Shown in pieces: positions 30,204 through 63,697 of a DNA stretch of 64,000 nucleotides. The position numbers and the translations under genes were made by a program. Source of the DNA: Lingula anatina (Eukaryota; Animalia; Brachiopoda); assembly GCA_051362555.1 (NCBI GenBank), contig CM120645.1:9920001-9984000 (forward strand), in the 5' to 3' direction. The notes under the pieces were generated by a model. The model had not been told where the DNA came from. It saw only the letters and a program-made list of their open reading frames with translations, and searched no databases. How positions within the stretch are numbered: position 1 is the stretch's first letter; each line of letters begins with the position of its first letter.

Positions 30204-41713
<11,510 letters not shown>

Positions 41714-45575: not shown

Positions 45576-48500
45576 ATGGATCCACCGATCATAAACAAAG
45601 GATCTCCAGCATCAGAGCCAGATTCAGCGAGCTCTGATCCCAAGGCCACAGGACTAGTGCAGACTGAAAATCCATCACCAAATTCCTGCGAGGGGGGTGT
45701 AGGGGATGCCCCAGCCCCTGCACCACAGGTAATGCACTGATCAGTACTGATAACATGTTCCTACTTGTTATTGTCAAATTTACCTGATTAGACAGATTAG
45801 TTTGATATAAGGTTGATACTGATATATATGGGAATATTATAACTTTCAATTTTGCTTTCAGATTCATATTGCTTGACAATTCTTAATTCTCTTAATTGTT
45901 ATATTGTATTTTATGTATCTCTCTACAATACACATGGACATACAGGTAGCAGTTCGTTGCCTGTAAAGATGTTAAGTTTGCCTGATTCACTGCAACTGAG
46001 CAGTTGGTTCTTATAGACACTGAATTATGTCTACTAATATGGTTCATTTATGAAGTCAATAGAAGACTTAGGCAGCATTCACAACAGAAGTTGATTCTCA
46101 GCCTAACAGGTCAGTGGATCAAGCATGCATGGCCTACCGACTTGAAATCTTACCAGTGGGGAATCTGTACAGTGTCTATTATGGAACTATGCAGCAAGCT
46201 TTCAAGGGGCATCTGCCGTATTTGGTCCTCGGATCTGATAATTAGGCCACGGATCTACTTGTTGTGAATGTACCATTAGACTTTCACTGTGCAAATTAAT
46301 TTGTTTATAATGTGACTTTATAATCTAGGCACAGTGCTATGTGTAGTTTATGGCATATTGTTGGGTTTGTTTCAGACAAAGAGTGATGAGACCCCATCCA
46401 ATGTTAAGACACAGTCAGTTAAACCAAAGGTAGGAATTCAAGGACATTTTGTAAAAGATTGAATATATATCAAGACTATCTCTGCAATGTACCTGGGTAT
46501 CAGCTAGGGCAAGAAATGCTTTACGTATTAATCTTCTTCATTTTGTCTCTTTTTTTTTCCTGAAAGAACCACCCTTTTAGCTGGAAAAGGTCTGCTTTAA
46601 ATTATCAAATTATGAATTAAATTTAATATGTACGACAGGCTTCTCAAGTCTTTGCAGTTTTTCAATTTTGATTGACTGATGGGTTTAAAAGTTCACTTTT
46701 TCAGAAAAAGAAGCCCCATATGAAATTTCTGCCTTCAGACCTGATATACCCACTAAGTTATGTGAGAAATTTCACCTCTTCCGATTTCAACAGACTTTAT
46801 TAGTTGCAGCTTCTTCCATTTTTATGTCTGCCCCTGACTTCAGTAAATTTTACAAAAACCAAGTCTTTGACATGTTCAAATTTACAGAATAACTAAAATG
46901 TTTGCCATCATAAAACACAGTTTTTTAAATTATGTATATATACATGTAAAAAGTCATAGCGGGATGGTTTTCCAGATAAGATCCGGGTACATCTGTTTTG
47001 TGTGCACTAGGTAAATACATACCATATGCAGGTACATGTTGTTGTATGTTGCATAATTCATTGTTGCTGTTTTTTTTCATTAGAATAGAAACACCACATG
47101 CTATCTGTAGACAGATTTTTCCATTGGTTATATGAACATATAAATGAAGTGTTCGCAATTCTGATGCGATCATTTCACGCTTTTTCACGCATATTGCTAC
47201 AAACATTAATTTATTGATCCCAGAAATCGGCTAGTACGGGTAAGAAGAAAGGCAAGCAGTCCAAGGGACCCACACTGGAAGAACTGAAGAGAAGAGGACG
47301 AGACACCCGCCAGCACCCCCACCAAGATAATATACAGATCATGGACAAGATGGCTGACCTGGTATGTTATGGCTGTTTTGACACTTCTTGATGATGTTTG
47401 CCATGTTCAGAATTGACCGAAGCTGTGACTTAAGAATGTTTGAAAACATGAAGTGTCATCCAAGCTCCTAAATTAATCTAATTAATGTTATCTTAGTAAT
47501 CTTTGCCAGTTTTATAATTGGTCTATGCAGTTCTAATACACTTGATTAGTGTATTCTGAATATAACTGATTTTAAATTTAGCTCAGGAGGTTTGTGTGTG
47601 TGGTGGGGAGGGGGGGGGGGATACTGATTGTTAATAACATACATGTATAATTGCTATGGGTAATTGGGAAAATAACACTTAAAGCATGTTTGTCTTTTAT
47701 AGCTGAACGCTTTTTACACAATTTTCTGTGTGAAATTATATGGTTTTTCACTTATAAATAATTCTTTGAACTTTCTTTATTTGCAGTCCATGAAATCAAT
47801 GAAATTAACAAATCTGGGGTAAGATTAAATTTTCAAATAAATATTAGACTTTACTTGTTACAAGTTGTTCCTTCTCAGTAATTATGAATTATTGCTGAAA
47901 ATTACACTAGCTTCCACTCCTGTGCAGGTTTTATTTTCAAGATTGGAAAAATTTGTCAAGATAGAAAATCAAGGCACAGTAACTACTTTCAAAATTTCCT
48001 ACAATATTTTAATAAGTATGAATATAAGAATATGCAGCAGGCTTGAATGGAAACAGTTATGATACAAAATAAATATTTTACCTTTGAGTAAACAGTACTA
48101 CATAAAACCCATTTTATTGATAAAATTTCAAACTGAAATGAATCAGATGTACAAGGCAACTTCACTGTATATTTTATGTTTACATGTTTGTTTTTTTAAA
48201 ATTTATATTTTATCGGTGTCAAATTCTTTTTCATATAGTACGGGGTTGATCTATGATCACTTCATGACCCAGCACAGGTGTGAGTGGGACCTCCTGCACC
48301 CCGAATGTCCTGACAGGATAACAGAGCCTTATCTAAGATGTCTACAGTATGGTCTGGTCACCAGATGTGTACCCATATTGGTAAGTACAGACCCAGTAGG
48401 GGATAAATGCGGACCAAGTAGGGCATAAATTTCAGAGAAGGGCATAAATTTCTTTTGTACACTGGTTGAATGACCAGAATTACAGTAATGGTATAGCTAT

Positions 48501-51500
48501 CGTTTTTGAACATTTATTTAAACAGTATGGTTTTACTTTCATCATATTTGTAATCCTGTTTATTGTTTTATTCAGATAAATATAAACAAATTTGAAAATG
48601 GTCAGCTGTATTAACAAGTTTCAGGTTTATTAGTACCACCAGCGTGTACGCTGGCGGTACTCATGGTTTTAGTCCCGACCCGTCTCGTACAGCTCCGCCG
48701 GCTCCTGCGGCTCCGCCGGCTCCTGCGGCTCCGCAGTCGGGCGCCGGAAACAAGTCACCGTTACCGCTTCTCCTCCTAGACCGCAAAGACCTGTGTCCCC
48801 ATCTCTTGGATTTAGGTCACATATAATCTCAACTTGAACACCCTGGTTTTTTTGTCTCCATCGGTGCACTGGCCTGGGCATGACGCTTGTTGAAACGCAC
48901 CCTTGTCAAAATTTTTGAAAATTCAATGCTTAATATCTCCCAAACCAAAGGAATTATGGGAAAAATTACTAAAGAAGTGTGACCCGAAAGTCATATGTGG
49001 AGATTCCAAATATGCCCTTGGATTTGACTTTTGACCTTTTTTTCAAGGTCAAACAAGCCAAAATTTTCTAAAAATGGGAATTTTCTGTAAAAAAATATTT
49101 GTTTGTGCTAATTTTAGGAAACTACACAGCCCTAAGCTCTCCTGTTATAATGAGGGGTTACCTTTGGGGACTCCTTTCATCTTTGGGAGTTTGGGGTCAT
49201 TCGGTGCATTTTCACGGGAGAAGCAGCCATTAGATACCGAAACTGAAAACTCGCTCTAAATCTGGAACGGTAAATGCCAGAGACCTCTTTTTTATTGCAT
49301 TTTGTAGACCTTGTCAAGTGCAATACTGGCGGTGGTGTCCATTTTTTTGTTTATGATATGGTTTAGGCGTTGCCCTATATCAAAAATTACAACATCACAA
49401 TATTCAGTGGGGAAAATGTGAAATACTCCAAAATTAGCAGAGATACGCCCATAGTTACTATTGAACTTGAATAGGAAGTCATATACTGATAATCTAACTG
49501 TGACCTTGAAATTGACCTTTGACCTACTTTTCAGTACTGCACTTTGCAAGTTTTCTGATCTTTATATCTCCAAAACTGGCAAAGATACGCCTATAGTTAC
49601 TATTGAACTTGAATAGGAAGTCATATACTGGCAATCTAAATATGATCCTGAAATTGACCTTTGACCTACTTTTCACCATGAACTGAACTTTGCAAAATTT
49701 TCAACCCTTATATCTCCAAAACTGGCAGAGATACACCCATAATTACTGTTGAACTTTAATAGGAAGTCATATACTGGCAGTCTTATTGTGACCTTGGAAG
49801 TGACCTTTGACCTACTTTTCACCATGAACTGAACTTTGCAAATTTTCTATCCCTTATATCTCGAAAACTGGCAGAGATAAGTCCAAAGTTACTATTGAAC
49901 TTGAATAGGAAGTCATATACTGGCAATCTTACTATGGCCTTGAAATTGACCTTTGATCTACTATTTATGATGAACTGCACTTTGCATGTTTCCTGGCCTT
50001 CATATCTCCAAAATTGGCAAAGAAATGCCCATAGCTACTATTGAACTTTTATAGGAAGTCATATACTGTGACCTTGAAATTGACCTTTGACCTACTTTTT
50101 CACCACAAACTGAACTCTGCATATTTTCTTGCCCCTCATATCTTCAAAGCTAGCAGAGATCTGCCCACTGTTGTCCCTAGGTTTTCTCTTTTGTCAGCAA
50201 ATATGCAATACTGATAACGCATTTCAAGGAAAACCAATTGTCTATTGTCTAGAAAATCACAGGAGTGATCAGTGTTAGGAAAATACAGCTCAATTTGAAC
50301 AGTTGCTTGTTTTGAACAGTTATGTTTGTTCGATATATATATATATATTTTTTCATATTTTGAGGACACTTGTTTATTGCATTTCATAGAGCTTGTCAAG
50401 CACAAGACTGGTGGTGGTGTTCATTTTTTGGGGATGGGGTTTCCATGAGAATGCGCTTACTCCAGCTGGTGGTACAATATCCAGAGGCGGTATCGCCTCT
50501 CTGATCCTCTAGTTTAGATTATATGTTTACAGCAGATGTTTGATAAATGACATAACAAGTTAGTATGGCTGACATGCCTTCAAGCGTCATTTTCAGTTAA
50601 GCTAAAATGTGTTATTGTAATTCCTATTGATAATTTCATCATGAGTACAAAAAATGAGTTAGAGTTAATTAAGTGGCATTACACTGCATGTCTACAGAGT
50701 ATTATCTATTTTTTTTCAGCATATTTACATACACTGTAAGCTCTCAAGTGTACTGGGCCATACTAGCCACTTGAGCAATTAAAGTGAATACTGAATCACT
50801 GATATCAGTGATATGTGAATGTAATCTGATGAATTTAACCCGGTGATGATCTTGACTTCACAACCTTGATCTACTGTTCAATTCCAGGCACGGACTGCAA
50901 GTGAAGACACTATTTTAACTCTGCATCACCCAGAATTAGTTGCTAATGTTAAATCCTGCTCTGATCAGGATGTTAAGGGGTTAAGAGAGCTTTCCAGTTC
51001 GTTGTATGATGATGTTGTGTTTCATAATGTACGTTCCCACTAGAGGTCACTGTAGAACACACTTTGTTTTGGCCAATTAACCAAAAATTTGACCAATTTG
51101 TGAGAACATAACTAACTGATAAAATTTTCCTATTTTCATTGATTATTACATGTTCTCACATTAATATTAACAGACAGTCCTTGTAATGCTACCTTAGCCT
51201 TGTCACATCTGTTTTTTTTAACAGCTTGCTTTTTACCCTAGCTGTCCCTGCTGGTATTGTTTTTATCCAAGTCAGCCTAGTTTTAGCTTTTTACATTTCT
51301 TACTTGATGCCTATTTATTAAAAAAAACTGGTCTTCAACATTAACCTGTTTTAAAACAACATGTGTTCTTGTATATGTCATTGTATTGCCAAGTAAGTAT
51401 GGATGCTGCCAAATTGATCAATATTAAATGGATAGAGCAATGTCTATATGTATTTCAACTGTGCAAATTAAAAAAAAAAAAAAGATAAATTATAGTACTG

Positions 51501-54500
51501 TAGGCATCTTGCTCACTGGTGTGTTTAGATTTTATATAATTTTCTTGCATTTCGAACAGGCTATTCTAACATTTTCTCCACATGTTTACGTTCCAACATA
51601 AATATTTAATCTGATTCAGTGGTGAACTTATTCCTCAAAAGCTACTGGTACTTACATGATACACGAGAAAACAAAGTAGAACAAGAAACCAGCTGTTATT
51701 TGGTGAAAAAAGGGGACATACTGGTACATATGATAATAATCAATATAAGCCTGAATAAAAACTGGATTTTCACTTTTTACCCAACTAAATAAGTTAAACT
51801 TTGCTTTGTATGCTATCTTTGATATTTTATACATTTGAGTATGCTCTGGTGACCTGCGGGGAAAATATTTGAATAGCCTGTAAGTGAGCCTTCTCCATTT
51901 TCTTACTTGTCACCACTGTGCAGTATTTTCTGTATTTGCTTGCATATTAGTAGACTAGCATTAGTGCAGCATGAATTTAATGTTTATCTTTTTGATGAAT
52001 GTTTGTTTGTATTGTTTGTTTTTCAGACAGGTGTTTAGAATAGGAGTGTAGCAAATCTCCCCTAGTGGTTGCATGATTTTGTAGCATTTAATTTGCAGTT
52101 TAATCATCAATTTCTATTTATTTAGGATCCTTTAGGTGAAAGAAATGCAGTGCTGATATCATATTATGTCCAAAACATGATTGAGAATATATTATTTTGG
52201 CCAAAATGCCACATTTGTTTGTCTTTATGTTGGGATTTCAAAAATGTAAGGATATATACTCGATGTATCTTTGTCTGAGCTGGGGGTCATGGCAAATTTC
52301 CAAGGTGAAGGTCATTTGAGGTCAAAATGACGTATGAAAAAATCCATTTATATACATGTCCAATTTCACAGTTTTACATTCCTGAAGATTAATTGTGCCA
52401 TTAAGACAAGAAAAATGATGAATATGAAGTGCTGCTAGGACAACAAAACGTTGAACCTTAGTATTGCCATGAAATCAACAAAACTGATGAGCCTCACTGT
52501 TACCATGACAATATGTAAAATTCCCCATCTCTCTGAATTTAATTAACATCATTGGGTGGGGGAATTAGTCGTTTCAAATACTACCGATTGTTCCAAAATG
52601 AGCTCAAATTTTTGTCTTACATTTTCTGAGCACAATTGGTAACTTAGCAAATATGAAAAGGGAATTCTGCCATTCAGTGAAAGGTTACTTTATAGTGTTC
52701 TGAGTTGCCTATCATTACCAAGGCTTTAATGTATCTGACTTGGAAGTTATGGAGTTTTCTTTTGTTTTCTGATTTCCACCCAGAGGAAGACAGCAAATCA
52801 GATTGAGGCAGTTTAATTTAAGAAACTCAGTGCTCAATCATTGGTGATTTTCAAAGAATTTATACTCAGGTTGACTTGACATATTTAAATTAGGAATTTT
52901 AAAACATAAAAACAATTATGAGGTGCACACACATTTTTTTCTGTTTTAATTTAAGTGATTTGGGTAATTTCAGCAATTAATATTATATTCATATTTACAT
53001 TAATTTATATTCTTTATTTAATATCAGACAAGTCTTGCTTTTAAATTACTATGAACTTTTGATTTTTATGAATATTTCATTTTGTAGCCCAAAAAGTCTG
53101 TTGATGAAGCTGCTCTAAGTCAGCATAGTCCAGAATACCTGAAGCTTTTGAAGGATTCTCAGTTCCTTAGTGAGATCCAGCCTCTTCAAGACCTCTCAGA
53201 AAAATATCATGGCATTTATTTTAACAGTGTATGTACACAACAAAATATATTTTCCTGGAAAAAGTTTTTTTTTTTTCTGGCAAAGTGTGTGCTCTCTCTC
53301 TCTCTAAGTATACAGTGCTGAGTGTGATATCTGTAAAAACCGAACTTATTTTAACTTTTTATTTATCTTAAGAAACAAAGACTGCTAGCTTTTGTTCAGT
53401 TTCTGAATATAACAGAAGTTTATTTTTCAATACTGTTAGCTTATCCTATTTAGTTTTGCTTTGTGTTTTGCCTCCTTGTTTAAGGTGTCAATGTATTTTA
53501 TATCTTTTTGTCCATTTGCTTCCTTTTTTTGTTGCTAATAGTTGTAGCTATGAATATATGTGTGCACATTTTTGTATCTTGGTCACCAAGCTGTTATTAT
53601 GGCATAAGTTAAAGAAATCCTTGATGGCATTATTTGTTGAAAATGACGGGAAGTCCTGTGGATTTGTAATGTTTCTGGCAGCAGTATTAAACCCCAGCAC
53701 CAATGTCCACATTAGCACTCGCACAAACAACATCTCAGTTCCACTAGCTTCTAAACTAAGATATTTTACCATTAAACTTCACTGGATGATTTTTCCTCAC
53801 CAGAAAACCATTCCTCCACTTATTCTGACAATCTGTGATCATTTGTAGCCTAAAATGACTTCAGAGAAAGGGCACTCCCCAGAACCCCTCTTACCAAGGG
53901 GGGTCCAGACACTCCAAGACCTCTCGGGGAAATATGACTCCATTTACTTCAACAGCGTAGGTGCACGACAACGGTATCTTGAATTATTTAAAAAAAGAAA
54001 AACTTTTGAATGGAAAACAAGATATCTGAGAATTAAAAAGAATAATGGCCAAATCAGCACTGTAAATTACAAGAAAGTGCTGTTATAGCTTTTCATTGTG
54101 CAAGCAAGCACCTGCATGGCTTCCACGTAGTTAGTGCTTTAATGTGACTAACTTAAACAAAGTTAAATTATAATAACCAATTACTTAGGATTAATTTGTG
54201 CTGTTCCGTTTTTAACAAAATTGAGTTAGATAAAAATGAATTTATGTACTTTTAATTTTGTTTTTTCCCTTGCTTTTTATCATACCTTGCAGCTTTTGCT
54301 TGCATAATTGTACCACCAGCGTTAGCGCTGGCGGTACACATGGTTTCGGTCTCGTCCGGATCGTTCCGCCGGCTCCGCCGGCTCCGCCGGTTCCGCCGGC
54401 TCCGCCGGCTCCGCCGGACGGCTACCGTTACCGCTTCTCCTCCTAGACGGTAAGGCCCCCCATACCCATCTCATGGATTTAGGTCACCTATAATCTCAAC

Positions 54501-57500
54501 TCGTTCCACGTAAAATTTGGGCTTTGTCGGTATTGGGGTCTGGGTGTGGCACTCATTGCAATGCACCCTTGTCCAAAAATGGCAAAATTAAATGCTAATT
54601 ATCTACCCTACGGAAGGAGTTACGGGAAAATTTTCTACAGACGGCTTTCCAAAAGTCATATGTGTAGATTTCAAATATACCCTCGGATTTGACCTTTGAC
54701 CTTTACTTCAAGGTCAAATGGGCCAAAATTTTCAAAAAAATGAAATTTTTTACGAAAAAAAAATTTTTTGCCCTGTTATTCAGACACCACACAGACTTAA
54801 CCAATAATATTATTGGAAAGTGTTACCCTTCAGGTCATCTTTCATCTCCGTGAATTTGGGGTCAATCGGTGCATTTTCACAGGAGTAGCGGCCATAAGAT
54901 ACCGAAACTGAAAACTGTCTCTAATTCGGGAACCGTTAATGCTAGAGACCCATTCTTTTTTGCATTTTGTAGAGCATGTAAAGCCCAACACTGGAGGTGG
55001 TCTCGGTTTTTTTGTATTCCATACGGTTTTCGAGTTACGCTGTATCAAAAAGTACATATTGGTGGTGAAAGGAAAATGTACGGAAGCCCACTGGTGCCAT
55101 ATGTAGAAAAAAAAATTATCTCGAAATTTCGAGATACTATTTTGAAATTTGAACAAAAAAAATTTACCACCAGCGTTAGCGCTGGCGGTACACATGGTTT
55201 CGGTCCCGTCCGGTCCGTTCCGCCGGCTCCGCCGCCATGTTACCGTTACCGCTTCTCCTCCTAGACGGTAAGGGCCCCCGTACCCATCTCATGGATTTAG
55301 GTCACCTATAATCTCAACTCGTTCCACGTAAAATTTGGGCTTTGTCGGTATTGGGGTCTGGGTGTGGCACTCATTGCAATGCACCCTTGTCTAAAAATGG
55401 CAAAATTAAATGCTAATTATCTACCCTACAGAAGGAGTTACGGGAAAAATTTCTATAGACGGCTTTCCAAAAGTCATATGTGTAGATTTCAAATATACCC
55501 TCGGATTTGACCTTTGACCTTTACTTCAAGGTCAAATGGGTCAAAATTTTCAAAAAAATGAAATTTTTTACGAAAAAAAATTTTTTTGCCCTGTTATTCA
55601 GACGCCACACAGACTTAACCAATAATATTATTGGAAAGTGTTACCCTTCAGGTCATCTTTCATCTCCGTGAATTTGGGGTCAATCGGTGCATTTTCACAG
55701 GAGTAGCGGCCATAAGATACCGAAACTGAAAACTGTCTCTAATTCGGGAACCGTTAATGCTAGAGACCCATTCTTTTTTGCATTTTGTAGAGCATGTAAA
55801 GCCCAACACTGGAGGTGGTCTCGGTTTTTTTTGTATTCCATACGGTTTTCGAGTTACGCTGTATCAGAAAGTACATATTGGTGGTGAAAGGAAAATGTAC
55901 GGAAGCCGACTGGTGCCATATGTAGAAAAAAAAATTATCTCGAAATTTCGAGATACTATTTTGAAATTTGAACAAAAAAAATTTTTATCTCGAAATTTCG
56001 AGATAGCATTTTGAAATTTGAACAAAAAAAAAATTATCTCGAAATTTCGAGATAGCATTTTGATATTTGAGCAAAAAAATTTATCTCGAAATTTCGAGAT
56101 AGTATTTTGAAATTTGAACAAAAAAAATGCTATCTCGAAATTTCGAGATAATTTTTTTTTTCAACATATGGCACCAGTCGGCTTCTGTAAAAATGTGCAG
56201 TACGGTAATGGATAATAAATTTTGAACTCCGGAAAAATAAAACATAATGCTTGGCAAAGCAGACAACTTGTGGTCAAAAATGACATTATTTTATCAAATT
56301 TAAACTTCTGCAACTTCAGAGAACCTCCCATTTCAAGAACTTTGACCAAAATGACCTTTTCTTTATTTTAATTAATTTTTTCTGTAGGCAATTTATGGCA
56401 CATTATGGTAACTCCAAAATTATAACATTTAGTCCCTTATATCTCCAAAACTGGCAGAGATAGGTCCATAGTTACTATTGAAGTTGAATAGGAAGTCATA
56501 TACTGGCAATCTTACTGTGACCTTGACATTGACCTTTGACCTACTTTTCACCATGAACTGAACTTTGCAAATTTTGCTTCCCTTTTATCTCCAAAACTGG
56601 CAGAGATAGGTCCATAGTTACTATTGAACTTGAATAGGAAGTCATATACTGGCAATTTTACTGTGACCTTGAAATTGACCTTTGACCTACTTTTCACCTT
56701 GAACTGAACTTTGCAAAATTTGCTTCCCTTTTATCTCCAAAACTGGCAGAGATAGGTCCATAGTTACTATTGAACTTGCATAGGAAGTCATATACTGGCA
56801 ATTTTACTGTGACCTTGAAATTGACCTTTGACCTTCTTTTCACCATGAACTGAACTTTGCAAATTTTGCTTCCCTTTTATCTCCAAAACTGGCAGAGATA
56901 GGTCCATAGTTACTATTGAAGTTGAATAGGAAGTCATATACTGGCAATCTAAATGTGACCTTGAAATTGACCTTTGACCTACTTTTCACCATGAACTGAA
57001 CTTTGCAAATTTTGCTTCCCTTTTATCTCCAAAACTGGCAGAGATAGGTCCATAGTTACTATTGAAGTTGAATAGGAAGTCATATACTGGCAATCTTACT
57101 GTGACCTTGAAATTGACCTTTGACCTACTTATCACCATGAACTGAACTTTGCAAATTTTGCTTCCCTTTTATCTCCAAAACTGGCAGAGATAGGTCCATA
57201 GTTACTATTGAACTTGAATAGGAAGTCATATAATGGCAATTTTACTGTGACCTTGAAATTGACCTTTGACCTACTTTTCACCTTGAACTGAACTTTGCAA
57301 AATTTGCTTCCCTTTTATCTCCAAAACTGGCAGAGATAGGTCCATAGTTACTATTGAACTTGCATAGGAAGTCATATACTGGCAATTTTACTGTGACCTT
57401 GAAATTGACCTTTGACCTTCTTTTCACCATGAACTGAACTTTGCAAATTTTGCTTCCCTTTTATCTCCAAAACTGGCAGAGATAGGTCCATAGTTACTAT

Positions 57501-59581
57501 TGAAGTTGAATAGGAAGTCATATACTGGCAATCTAAATGTGACCTTGAAATTGACCTTTGACCTACTTTTCACCATGAACTGAACTTTGCAAATTTTGCT
57601 TCCCTTTTATCTCCAAAACTGGCAGAGATAGGTCCATAGTTACTATTGAAGTTGAATAGGAAGTCATATACTGGCAATCTTACTGTGACCTTGAAATTGA
57701 CCTTTGACCTACTTTTCACCATGAACTGAACTTTGCAAATTTTGCTTCCCTTTTATCTCCAAAACTGGCAGAGATAGGTCCATAGTTACTATTGAAGTTG
57801 GATAGGAAGTCATATACTGGCAATTTACTGTGACCTTGAAATTGACCTTTGACCTACCTTACAATGAACTTAACTTTGATTGCACCATTTTTAGTTATAT
57901 ATATTTTTTGCATATTTTGAAAATTCTTGTTGATTGCATTTTTACAGCTTGTCAAGCACAAGACTGGTGGCTGCACCCCTTATTTTGTGTATGTGGGGGT
58001 CTATACGAATGCGCTTGCTCCAGCTGGTGGTACAATATTCGGAGGCGGTATCGCCTCTCTGATCCTCTAGTTATTTAGATTTTTATTGTAAATTTGTTTC
58101 AAAAATGTTTTGATTTGATTTTAACTTTATTTAATAAAGGTATAATAATGGACAAATTCATTATAAATTGTTTTGGGTCTGTACTTGTTAGTAATTTTTA
58201 ACTGAATTATTAAATTAATGATTATAATAATGGTTAAATAGTATAGTCTTTTATCATTTGAGAATATATTTGATAGAAATAAAAAAAGAGAATGATTAGT
58301 TCTTATTGCCAATTTTCAGAAAACATTTGAATGTGCACAGCTTTCTCTAGGCAGTACCATAGAAATGACAGAACAGATCTTGCAAGAAAAGGTCAGTTTA
58401 CACATATTGTTATAGACATGTTAACTTTGGCTCTATTCCCATAGGTTTTAGATCGATCTATCCCCGCGGGGAGTCTCACTAGATTACTTTCAGATAATCC
58501 GACTTAAATGTCCGTCCCGCCTACTACAAGCTGTAAGGAGGTAATTAACTTTCGTGTCCGCCCGGCTGACAGCTATTTAGCGTGAACCCCCAGGGAGTTA
58601 GGTCGATCTAAAGTAGGTCGATCTAATCTATGGAAATGGGGTGTTTGATTCATCGTGTAGAGGTCCGAATATTATTTTAAAGACATGTATAGATTATGTG
58701 GAAAAATTAATGACATTGCATATATATTTATAGATGGTATTGTTTGTGTATGTCTGTTTATGAAGTTTATTTATTTCAGGTTAGAAATGGGTTTGCCATT
58801 GTAAGGTAAGCATTAAAGGAGGAATAATAAAGTTATAAAGATTATCTTGTACCAGTAATTAAAATGTTAAGTTTTTAAACATACCCATTTTTTTAAAATA
58901 TCATTAGAATGTACTTCTCACTGCAGATATTTCAATATTAAAAAAAAAAACTCTTTAAGTAGTCCATAGCCATTTAACATGTTTAAAAGGTTGAGACTTT
59001 CAGAGCTGGGCTTCTGTATCTCTTTAATATTACTAAAAAATAATTTTTAAACTTGCTATTTAATTCCTTTCCAGACCCCCAGGTCACCATGCAATGTACA
59101 AAGAGGCCTGTGGATACTGCTTCTTTAACAATGTGGCCATTGCTGCAAAACGCGCTCTGGACAAGTTTGGTCTGGAAAGGTACTCACTATGGGCTTATTC
59201 TCAATGAAGTTTTTGTTTGATTTAGATTGATGCAACTCTGCAGGGACTCTTGCTGAATGCAATCAGATTGACAGATTAACACCCCTCCTCCTGGCATTGA
59301 GTAGAATTCAGAAAAGCTGGTGATTATACAAGTACGTTGGAAACAAGTGGAGGCGTTTCAATTTGTTTGTTTGCATTAAACAAGAGTCCCCATGATTGAT
59401 CTACTTGGTACGGTTCTTTCAGTGGAAATGGGCCTTAAGCTCTTTGTCATGTTTGTTTTATATAGTGCTATAATGTCAAGTATTCAAGGAATGGGTGAGC
59501 TGGTTTGAGGGAAAGTATATAGAAATCAGGTATGTGTTTGGTGTGGTATGGTCTAATAATTACTGAGATATATTTCAATGT

Positions 59582-59615
<34 letters not shown>

Positions 59616-61996
59616 GTCCATGCCAATATACTTATTGCTTTACAGAACATAATGCCAAAAATTGTCAATATTTAAAACCACTGATTTCTAACTGACTGTA
59701 TATTTGATATGTCAGGGTGTTGATAGTGGACTGGGATGTCCACCATGGTCAAGGCACACAGTACATGTTCTATGATGACCCAAGGTAAGAGAAATAGATG
59801 GAATTAACTTGCTGAATTAAAAGTAATAATAAACTGATGGTATTTATAACTTGATGTAATGCTTTGTAAAAGATATATGAAAGGGATGCTTTCAATTGTT
59901 TTGAAAAGCAAGTTTTGTTCGTAGGAGAAAGTCTGATTTTGTAAGAAACTTGGAAAAATTAGTGACCTGTGAGGGATGAAGATGAAACAGGAAATGGTAG
60001 TTTTTATATATGTCAGACTGAGAGCCTAAATACTGTCATATTGCACATGAAATATAAAATGTTAATAAGCTATTCATAAATAATAATCCTGGTGCAAGTA
60101 TTTCAGCTTGTGTTTAATTATTATCATATATGATACAACTACCAAGCTAATGAACATGTTTGCTTAATAATCCTGGTGATTTTGTGTCTTTCAGAGTGAT
60201 GTATGTGTCTATCCACCGCTATGAGTATGGCAATTTCTGGCCAAACCTTCGAGAGTCCGACTATGACTATATAGGAGAGGGTCGAGGTACAGGCTACAAC
60301 ATCAATATACCTCTCAATAAGGTAATTATCACATTCATCAAATGATATTATTGGCATAAAATTGGAGAAAGGGATTTGATTTTATTCAAAATAGACACAG
60401 CTGTCCTGATGCTGTGCATGATCAGTTGATATGATATCTTGGTGACAGAAATAAAGTTGGAATGAAAAAGTGTATATAAGTGAGTTGAAATAATTATAGT
60501 GACTGAAGCAGGGATGAGATTTTTCTGACTATTGGCAGATTTCAGACCTTTTAGGTGGTGTTGATGCTTACAACAGTAATGAGATTTTTCTGGCATATCT
60601 GCAAATTTCTGACTTATCGGGAGCCAGAAAGTCTCATCCCTGATATATAAGTAAAACCCTATGTATATAGATATTTTCTGCTCTTGATATTGTATAAACT
60701 TGACTATATGTCTGTTGGAATGTGCAATTGTTTTGCAAGGTGGCTACAAAGAACGTGCAGTTAGAAAAGGACATAACTGCTAATTTTAATATAGCAAATT
60801 AATAAATTTAAAAACAAGACAAGAATACTACTGTTTATTCAGTCCAGTGAATTACTTAATGAAAACACAAGTAACTAGACAAGAACTGTGTTACACGTCA
60901 ACTCATAATTTAATCCACCGAATTAATACATTTAAACGCAGGGAAGACGAGTTTAACTGTTTATTCATTTCAGTGAATTTATAAATGAAAACTTTGGTTT
61001 CAGACTGGTATGACTAACAGTGACTACATGGCTGTGTTTCATCAACTACTCATGCCTATATTCTATGAGGTAATGGAAATCTTGTTTCAATTAAAATTTA
61101 CCTTTTTCTGTAATAATTAGGTTACTGCAGTGTTAGTAAGATATTATGTTTTGCAATTAGTAATGATATTGAATAATTGCATTAAGTAAGATATTTGTTC
61201 ATACAGTTAGCAAATGATAAGTAGAGAACAACAATTGCTTATGGCTAAGAGCAATATTTATTATTTTAAAAGTGTAATACAGCTGTATAAACTATTTTAA
61301 GTTGAAAATTGTTGTTTTAGTTGTGAAATTGCACTAGGTGTGACAAGATTGAGATTGTATTAGGTGTGACAGTGTGATATTGTGGTCATTGTGGTAGGTG
61401 TGACAGTATGATGTGGATGGCATTGTGTTTGTTGTGACATTGTCATATGGTTGACATTGTATAAGGTGTTACAGTATGGCAGGTTTGATTGTTACAAGTT
61501 TAATATTGTGTTAGGTGTGAATGATAAAGTTGACATTATATTAAAATGTATAACAGTATGATATTGTTAACATTGTGTTAGGTGTGCCAGTGATATGGTT
61601 AACATTGCGTTAGGTGTGACAGTGTGTTGGCTGTGACAGTGTGTCACATGTGACAGCTGAGTGTGTTGAATGCTCCATTAACAATGATATTGGACATCCC
61701 TTTACACTTCTCCCCCATACATTACAGTACAACCCTCAGCTGGTATTGGTCTCCTCTGGTTATGATGCAGCTATAGGATGCCCAGAGGTACAGATGTGCA
61801 TGCTATATACTGAGTTTCCCCTGTGTTAGAAATAGCAACACCTGTTCAAGAAACTCATTGTTTACACTGCTTAGGTTATTGTACACAGACCAATAAGGGT
61901 GTGGTCCACTTTATTTGTGCATGTTCAGACATCACTTTTTTTTTTCAATCCAAAAAGAGACTGGTTTTACTATTTCAAACTTCTCGGTCAAGCCAA

Positions 61997-62038
<42 letters not shown>

Positions 62039-63697
62039 TGAAACACATTTTTTGGCAAAAGTAGATATTGTTTAAAAGCAGGCAGTTGCATGGCACTATT
62101 ATTCGACCAGAAGTTGTGACATTTTGATCTCTTACTTGAAATAATCATAGGTTATATTACTCTAGATCACCATCACCAAAACAATTTTCTTATTAAAGAT
62201 AAAGGAGCAATTGATATTGCACAAACAGCATGGGTGTCAATCAGTTTCTTGAACAGGGAGATTGCAATTAGTCCCATAGCATGAGTGTTATGCTTGTAGT
62301 ACTAATTATTACAGTGCCAGTACTAGTGTTCTTCCTTTTCCTCCTTTAGTTTTGTCCCCAATTGGTTATAGTTTCTAGTGGATTTGACTCAGCACTTGGA
62401 GACGAGAAGGTATAATACCTGATGCTACTTTTGTGTTCTTTGAACAACCATTAACTGTCTTAACTTGTTTCTACTTACTATTTTCTAGTTACTTTTTTGT
62501 AATGATATTGAATACAAGTTTCACAAAAGATTGTTTTGCCCCCCCCTCCAAAAAAAAAAAAAAAAAATTGGTCTAAATTTTTAGATCTCAGCATTTTGCC
62601 CCACGATAATCTTATTCCGTAGTATTAGTCTAATTTTATGAAGTGTTTGTCCTCTTCTTGTAAGAAGAAAGACATGACTGATGTTTCAAACCAACACTTT
62701 TTTAGTGGAAAACTGCAGATCAGGCAGACCATATATTTTAGTCCAATAGTTTTGCCCAATTTTGAATGACTGCAGTATCTTTTGTGAAACTGCTCAGTTT
62801 TGTAATGTCTTACCCTTCCATTTGACAGATTGCTCCTGCTTTTGATTATTTATTTACAAAGATTCATGAATTGATGTAATCAATGTTTTTAAAAGTTTTA
62901 CTTACTAGTAAATGTTTTAAATTTGTAAAGAGTTAAAAGTTCACTTGTGGCACTCACAAGTATGGAAAGATAAAAACATTTGATAGAATTCTGATCTCTT
63001 TATAATATGATTGAATGTAACTTAAAAACTATTTTAATACAGACAAATATAACATCAGCTTATATTTTGCTAAACCTCAGGCTGTTTACTTGGCTGTTAT
63101 AAGTTCTTTTCTCACAAGTACACAGTTTTTTCAATCATTTGTCCAAAAATATGCACTTGCATATTCATTAGTTTACCTTTGTTGTATTGTAGGGAGAGAT
63201 GGAGGTGACCCCAGCTTGCTATGCTCATTTTATCAACATGCTCAGTGCTCTGGCTGATGGCAAACTGGCTGTTATACTAGAGGTAAATAAATATGTTGAA
63301 ACATGTGCCAGTGTGGTAGATGTGACAGTGTGTTGGGTGTGACAGTGTGTTTGATTTGACTGTGTTTGGTAGAACAGTGCACTTGGTAAATGTGTGGAAG
63401 TTTGACGTGAATTGTTGTTATAAATTTAACAAGTACCTTCCAAAAATCATCTACATAAGACATAATATTTAATGTCCATATTTTTTAAGAAATCAATTTT
63501 TAAACTTTGATAAAGTGTTGAGCAACACCACATTTTAATCACCACTGTTTAAAGTAAAAATATATGACCTGGACATTATGCTCTCCATAGGGAGGATACT
63601 GCCTGAAGTCTCTGTCTGAGGGCGTGGCTCTCACACTGAGGGCTCTACTGGGAGACCCGACACCAAGGATAGGACCACTACAGCAGCCTAATGATGT
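45576..63697 (+). CDS. HDAC6: Class IIb histone deacetylase, HDAC6-like (N-terminus and catalytic domain 1; 3'-incomplete). Exons 45576-45728, 46376-46429, 47224-47361, 47787-47818, 48239-48380, [50888-51028 | 53088-53228 | 53849-53956], 58320-58391, 58780-58805, 59075-59179, 59716-59784, 60195-60321, 61004-61069, 61728-61787, 63193-63282, 63591-63697
   Basis: Basic N-terminal [20 protein letters not shown]; [14 protein letters not shown]; [25 protein letters not shown]; [13 protein letters not shown]; [19 protein letters not shown]; LEGGY; all splice phases consistent. Confidence 0.9.
48629..50514 (+). mobile_element. Helentron-associated interspersed element (HINE/DINE-like) with ~5 internal ~146-bp repeats
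   Basis: 5' taccaccagc..gctggcggta hairpin, (ccgccggct)n microsatellite, central tandem repeats, 3' subTIR gctggtggta, stem-loop agaggcggtatcgcctct, ends ctagtt. Confidence 0.8.
50888..51028 (+). CDS. HDAC6: HDAC6 alternative exon A (141 nt)
   Basis: ccag|[47 protein letters not shown]|gtacgt, phase 0/0, no stop. Confidence 0.8.
53088..53228 (+). CDS. HDAC6: HDAC6 alternative exon B (141 nt)
   Basis: gtag|[47 protein letters not shown]|gtatgt, phase 0/0. Confidence 0.85.
53849..53956 (+). CDS. HDAC6: HDAC6 alternative exon C (108 nt)
   Basis: gtag|[36 protein letters not shown]|gtaggt, phase 0/0. Confidence 0.75.
55898..56189. mobile_element. MITE nested in the HINE, internal ~42-bp repeats with palindrome tatctcgaaatttcgagata, 6-bp TSD aaaatg
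   Basis: aaaatg|tacggaagccgactggtgccatatgt ... acatatggcaccagtcggcttctgta|aaaatg. Confidence 0.8.
56435..57875 (+). repeat. 146-bp satellite array, ~10 units
   Basis: atctccaaaactggcagaga at 56441, 56587, 56733 ... 57755. Confidence 0.95.
58428..58644 (+). mobile_element. MITE-like repeat, same family as 12727-12953
   Basis: Shared internal sequence and imperfect TIRs. Confidence 0.7.
61330..61660 (+). repeat. Degenerate minisatellite (ttaggtgtgacagtgtgatatggttgacattgtg-like)
   Basis: Repeated ggtgtgacag motif at roughly 30-40 bp spacing. Confidence 0.65.

Follow-up and report, generated by a model that had tools for sequence, protein, structure and literature searches.

The HDAC6 gene of the brachiopod Lingula anatina carries three tandem copies of one exon (A, B and C), for which homology, phase, splice junctions and the complementarity of nearby intron sites can all be read directly from the data. 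Three forms of HDAC6 occur in RNA, with B alone, with C alone and with B and C together, and the use of C depends on the sample. The initial annotation of this DNA had taken A, B and C to be mutually exclusive and had seen in the surrounding introns a three-way RNA switch; mutual exclusion is refuted here. Since B and C are spliced singly or together, the complementary intron sites are not a strict exon selector, and likely at most tune the skipping of C. The reading that we favour, tentatively and with slightly less than even confidence, is a lineage-restricted triplication with sample-dependent combinatorial splicing, in which an 11-bp helix bracketing C is the likely brake on C; that any helix forms or matters is something we infer.

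The window, by which we mean the whole 64,000-nt stretch of DNA analysed, contains the HDAC6 gene on its + strand. Exon B matches NCBI protein P0001 with 100% identity; to this protein Pfam assigns PF00850 and PF02148 (two deacetylase domains plus a ubiquitin-binding zinc finger), and its nearest solved structures are zebrafish and human HDAC6 (E about 1e-246). Together with the alignment of the exons, the protein match and its domains bear out the earlier identification of the gene as an HDAC6 with three homologous exons. The upstream constant exon U, in catalytic domain 1 (48239..48380, +), translates as in P0001, and its 3' end is the consensus of the loose read ends found before B and before C; the downstream constant exon D (58320..58391, +) also matches P0001, and the consensus of the loose ends that follow B and that follow C is its 5' end. 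Exons A (50888..51028, +; 141 nt), B (53088..53228, +; 141 nt) and C (53849..53956, +; 108 nt) are all bounded by AG and GT and are all of phase 0 at both ends, and thus form a series of tandem homologous same-phase exons. A is homologous to B, while C is a shortened duplicate of B, with 11 codons (33 nt) fewer and 75% identity to it across the last 75 nt, donor included. Scored over the nine positions of the splice-donor consensus, the donors of B and C match at 5/9 and those of U and D at 7/9.

Several other features of the neighbourhood deserve mention. The introns flanking the cluster hold tandem arrays of a 146-bp unit (49426-50167 and 56433-57878; 5.2 and 9.9 copies) and copies of a repeated element (54310-56150), with one end of the element, at 50200-50520, represented abundantly in the RNA of other loci. 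Upstream of HDAC6 are the 3' exons of another gene (window about 40330-41713, +), which from their translations we take to be copine-like. A possible decayed fourth exon copy at 51851-51885 was rejected, as 115 of 200 shuffles score as high, and so was an extra exon near 52030-52140 hinted at by RNA depth, where a 33-nt match (52070-52102) to another locus has loose ends on both sides in three runs.

The triplication appears, as far as examined, to be restricted to Lingula, the named matches including no other brachiopod. Between two anchor motifs, a protein with one copy of A or B has 108 residues, one with C alone 97, and one with B+C 144; the homologues have 107-108 in the rows displayed and a mean of 107.4 over 158 segments. 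Annotated isoforms carry a single version of the segment in 27 of 29 species groups, which were taken from the top matches having several members, with a pooled genus and a truncated model as the two exceptions. A search with exon B alone gave P0001 as the only match among 17 candidates, which is weak evidence.

Exon use was read from raw RNA reads of the same species in six of nine available runs (X12, X13, X15, X16, X18 and X19), at 6-26% of each; X12 and X13 come from one study. Among the junction reads listed, X12 has 9 for U-B, 10 for U-C, 21 for B-C, 4 for B-D and 22 for C-D, and X13 has 7, 10, 16, 4 and 12, respectively. The B-C joint is the commonest junction at the 3' end of B (21/25 in X12 and 16/20 in X13, or 80-84%) and makes up 62-68% of the junctions at the 5' end of C in these two runs, although junctions to U and D were counted as loose ends matching those exons and may be undercounted relative to the B-C joint. 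X19 has nine B-D reads and no C junction among those listed. X15, X16 and X18 were judged by depth and joints only; in their mapping, the repeat at 50200-50520 lay in the mapped stretch and crowded the loose-end table. In these runs exon C has a depth of 0 (X15, X16) or about 1 (X18, with a single B-C read), and exon B a depth of 4-5. Exon B is thus expressed in all six runs, and exon C is near absent in four of them and heavily included in X12 and X13, with sample, study, tissue and lineage confounded as causes of the difference. The NCBI model P0001 itself joins B to C and omits A, and it is this model together with the B-C junctions (21, 16 and 1 reads in X12, X13 and X18) that refutes the choice of one exon out of three. 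Skipping of all three exons, from U to D, lay outside what the mapped stretch could show.

Differences among alleles bear on how C and A are to be seen. Exon C is carried by both alleles in the runs that include it, the other letter at 53881 occurring in 31/50 reads of X12 and 14/26 of X13. The exon-B alleles of X18 and X19 are common to X10, a divergent Lingula DNA run (the one mapped out of 11) with 215 substitutions listed by kind over a 3.7-kb stretch. Exon A has a depth of 0 to 0.9 in 6/6 RNA runs, an intron-like level, with no listed junction in the 6-26% of each run covered. In X10, the displayed rows give exon A at least five substitutions (three missense and two silent) and no stop, no indel and no splice-site change, and its similarity to homologues is close to that of B (mean local score 56 vs 59 over 158 segments, which include some of the second domain). 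Exon A may be used in unsampled cells.

The three exons differ at a position of the L2 loop that binds substrate. By the alignment ranges, residue 42 of B, a Gly, aligns with D94 of HDAC10, and at this position A has Asp and C has Ser; D94 has been equated with D101 of HDAC8 and with S568 of HDAC6 domain 2 in the available portion of PMC5454378. An AlphaFold model of P0001, the B+C form, has a pLDDT under 50 at residues 214-231 (the end of B and the start of C) and of 93-94 at 241-260 (the end of C). It predicts that the B+C protein places the L2 loop of C (Ser) in the fold and expels that of B (Gly) as a surface insertion of roughly 36 residues, a choice of loop that may follow the input alignment. 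The C-alone protein, 11 residues short, would probably be impaired. Elsewhere, the Ruditapes HDAC6 isoforms P0033 and P0155 differ from each other at the corresponding L2-loop segment in domain 2, possibly through an independent duplication of the same kind of exon.

A second set of exons in domain 1 is likely the more striking one. Two predicted alternative exons, each of 60 nt, phase 0 and bounded by AG and GT, end in Glu (61728-61787, +) and in Lys (62350-62409, +); the Glu aligns with chain position 274 of HDAC10, and the Lys with that of the zebrafish HDAC6 domain 1 motif ‘GDPK’, which, by the zebrafish numbering together with PMC5454378, we take to be K330. Same-length HDAC6 isoform pairs of molluscs and shrimps have a single differing stretch in 12/12 cases. 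Both the Glu and the Lys form are annotated in 20 of the 29 protostome-rich species groups, namely 11/11 molluscs, 4/4 Penaeus, two Aedes, Athalia, Bemisia and Folsomia; six higher flies, Tetranychus and Ixodes have the Glu form only, and a gecko the Lys form only. One oyster HDAC6 model joins both exons. K330 of zebrafish HDAC6 domain 1 and E274 of HDAC10 are described as gatekeepers for anionic and cationic substrates (PMC5454378), K330E inhibits free acetyl-lysine hydrolysis (bioRxiv 10.64898/2026.05.22.727066), and annelid hdac6/10 genes are mentioned without a Glu/Lys pair (PMC12153100), in each case within the accessible text of the source. From alignment, the pair is a candidate splicing switch of substrate specificity. 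Titles and the starts of abstracts yielded no report of such a pair in HDAC6, though it may be listed in subscription papers or in a catalogue of mutually exclusive exons. With a Lys/Glu exon swap found across protostomes, it becomes testable whether invertebrate HDAC6 also serves as a polyamine deacetylase. The intron between the two exons contains a 20-nt inverted repeat of 95% complementarity (61841-61860 / 62238-62257), which could shorten that intron or bring its ends together.

Returning to the A/B/C cluster, the initial annotation had described a site downstream of C that would pair in turn with sites in the upstream introns, and the motifs (the 12-mers at 54053 and 52146, the 11-mer at 53311, the 7-mer at 54076 and GATATC at 54021) all lie where it placed them. 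The candidate docking site (54053..54064, +) begins 97 nt after the donor of C. Candidate selector 1 (52146..52157, +), in the A-B intron, forms 12 bp with 54053-54064, one of them G-U (-18.0 kcal/mol), and candidate selector 2 (53311..53321, +), in the B-C intron, forms 11 perfect bp with 54054-54064 (-16.9 kcal/mol), so that it brackets exon C together with the docking site. A local 7-bp partner (54076..54082, +) gives a hairpin at 54055-54082 of -12.2 kcal/mol (z -1.92, with 10/200 shuffles as good; a fold of 101 nt gives z +0.48). The docking bases are common to all three helices, which exclude each other, as had been stated. One downstream site is thus complementary to a selector after each upstream exon, with the same bases competed for, and the downstream-docking layout of tandem exons and a single site with partners after the upstream exons is present. 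The proposed extension of both pairings through GATATC does not stand: at the first partner GATATC begins within the helix, at 52155, and the two pairings cannot be complete at once, while at the second it begins at 53326; pairing with GATATC at 54021 has a probability of 0.000 in all three folds containing it. An A/T-rich repeat pairing (53250/53991) was rejected as well (probability 0.000 in folds), and the upstream docking geometry gave no 11-bp triple.

How unusual these sites are depends on whether they are taken singly or together. In the comparison with shuffled introns that had been suggested as a check, 5.2% of 691 dinucleotide shuffles equal the best A-B-intron pairing and 4.1% equal the best B-C-intron pairing, borderline in each case, and one site with both upstream partners (the triple) is found in 0/691. 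In real windows of the same geometry within this stretch, a stricter control than shuffles, 6 of 209 other overlapping windows reach the energy of the triple, several of them via G-runs. By helix length (at least 11 bp, at most one G-U, low complexity removed) 6/208 windows have such a triple, 1/208 with at least four G/C and 0/208 with at least five, with thresholds and a 350-nt downstream region that were set once the motif was known. The triple is thus uncommon, roughly in the top 0.5-3%, and not extraordinary. Selectors 1 and 2 are identical at 11 of 12 letters, whereas the alignment of their flanks scores 20, a value that 77/200 shuffles reach; such a likeness without flank homology could be due to chance as well as to retention by selection. 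A fold of 53229-54110 gives the helix of selector 2, in the B-C intron, a probability of 0.97. Which helix is predicted to win changes with the stretch that is folded (selector 2 at 0.97, the local hairpin at 0.93, selector 1 at 1.00), and therefore folding cannot rank the three helices. The 3.6 kb of the cluster contain 217 inverted repeats of at least 10 nt, some stronger than the selector helices. Contigs of X10 span all the motifs, and metagenome scans yielded no orthologous DNA.

Four further observations concern the same introns. The strongest inverted repeat of the A-B intron (51556-51585 / 51852-51881; 30 nt, 83%), with -30.2 kcal/mol and a local-fold probability of 0.999, is stronger than the pairings described in the initial annotation, which omits it although it shares an intron with selector 1; the 3' arm of this repeat ends on a donor-like GTAAGT at 51880. 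The reading frame of C stays open for 43 codons into the intron (53957-54085), across the docking site, where intron depth is near zero. The stretch 53999-54013 is similar to the first part of exon D. Two haplotype contigs of X10 separate immediately after 52157, and these contig ends, given assembly words of presumably 31 letters, suggest a variable site inside the GATATC at 52155.

In the mechanism that we favour, pairing of 53311-53321 with 54054-54064 would place C in a loop and B would be joined to D, whereas with the docking site held in the local hairpin or by a protein, C would be available and could be spliced after B or instead of B. Because C use differs between samples, a factor outside the RNA fold (tissue, stage or genotype) would have to set the balance. 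The 52146 partner would favour A, the use of which was not seen in the six RNA runs. Of the outcomes predicted from the three pairings, B alone (C looped out) and B+C (nothing looped) are both found in RNA, and A alone, the outcome expected from the strongest helix (52146:54053), is found in 0/6 runs. C alone, with 10 reads in each of X12 and X13, is a product of none of these loops and would need B to be skipped in some other way, and a counterpoint to any brake is the heavy inclusion of C in these two runs despite the helix.

Nearly as likely is that the complementarity arose by chance or was left over from the duplication, and that B and C are independent cassettes with weak donors under protein control only. 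The donors of B and C, weaker than those of U and D, agree with this, as do the single pairings at the 4-5% level of shuffles, the 6/209 real windows that match the energy of the triple, the 217 inverted repeats, some of them stronger, and the fact that the strongest helix predicts an exon unseen in RNA. The rarity of the triple (0/691 shuffles and 0-1/208 windows of comparable G/C) tells the other way. So does the position of the sites, exactly in the layout known for duplicated exons from the available part of PMC6071210. A switch of the 14-3-3/Mhc type that picks A, B or C singly, with B+C as a leak and A confined to unsampled tissue, would account for the layout and for the finding of both B alone and C alone, and would give meaning to the splice sites, canonical 47-residue length, near-B similarity and open frame in X10 that A has kept; we nevertheless consider it improbable, as B-C junctions at 80-84% of the 3' end of B and 62-68% of the 5' end of C are too many for a leak, decay cannot enforce exclusion because all exons are of phase 0, the NCBI model is B+C, and A is unseen in 6/6 runs. 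The proposal of an independently evolved three-way HDAC6 switch of the 14-3-3zeta/Mhc/Dscam type accordingly fails on the one-exon choice (B-C 21/25 and 16/20).

A very improbable account is that C is a decaying duplicate, its inclusion noisy or dependent on genotype and without regulated role, whatever the pairings do. Its loss of 11 codons relative to B, the several coding differences between its alleles and its low use in the runs with X10-type alleles (X18, X19) point in this direction, but it has kept its frame and, in the L2 loop, the canonical Asp-Ser lost from B, both of its alleles are included in X12 and X13, and X16, which has the window's letter at 53113 (0/5 other), is nonetheless without C. 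We also regard as unlikely an independently evolved, non-exclusive docking system whose single site would switch between three partners and yield A, B, C or B+C, with Asp, Gly or Ser in L2, and would act with the Glu/Lys pair to reprogram domain 1 at two active-site positions. Our preferred reading stays with a triplicated exon whose third copy may be restrained by the helix around it.

Among known systems, the closest in layout are the insect 14-3-3zeta, Mhc, MRP1 and Dscam exon 4/9 clusters, which, in the available text of PMC6071210 and PMC4691838 (to which all that follows from these two sources is likewise limited), share with Lingula both the tandem homologous exons and a downstream site that can pair with one behind each of the upstream exons. 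In the insect clusters exactly one exon is included, and the elements are conserved and have been tested by mutation, whereas in Lingula B+C is a major form, A is unseen in RNA and C is 33 nt shorter; because the one-exon rule fails, we do not class the Lingula cluster as a mutually exclusive member of the docking-site group. In srp, joint splicing of both exons is an aberrant result of broken pairings (PMC4691838). The birth of selectors by duplication of a stem arm, as modelled by Ivanov and Pervouchine (PMC6071210), resembles Lingula in the near-identical partner pair beside duplicated exons, but here the flanks of the two partners are without detectable homology and the outcome is not mutual exclusion. 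By analogy, the Lingula cluster may work like the ordinary loop-out of a cassette exon: in a minigene of Dscam exon 4, an exon enclosed in a loop is included less (PMC4691838), and skipping by complementary flanking introns is described there and for human ATE1 (PMC7797038, available part), with the arms of the Lingula helix lying 538 nt before and 97 nt after C. Unlike those systems, the Lingula case has a short single helix that is a candidate from sequence alone. HDAC6 of other animals has the same two deacetylase domains and zinc finger with a single copy of the segment, in contrast to the A/B/C copies of Lingula, and we found no report of an HDAC6 cluster of this type among titles and the starts of abstracts. 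Lingula HDAC6 is thus not a new mutually exclusive switch, although its pairings may still have a modulating role; it is a natural case of a docking-type layout that does not, or no longer does, enforce exclusion, and as such it bears on the origin of these clusters (PMC6071210).
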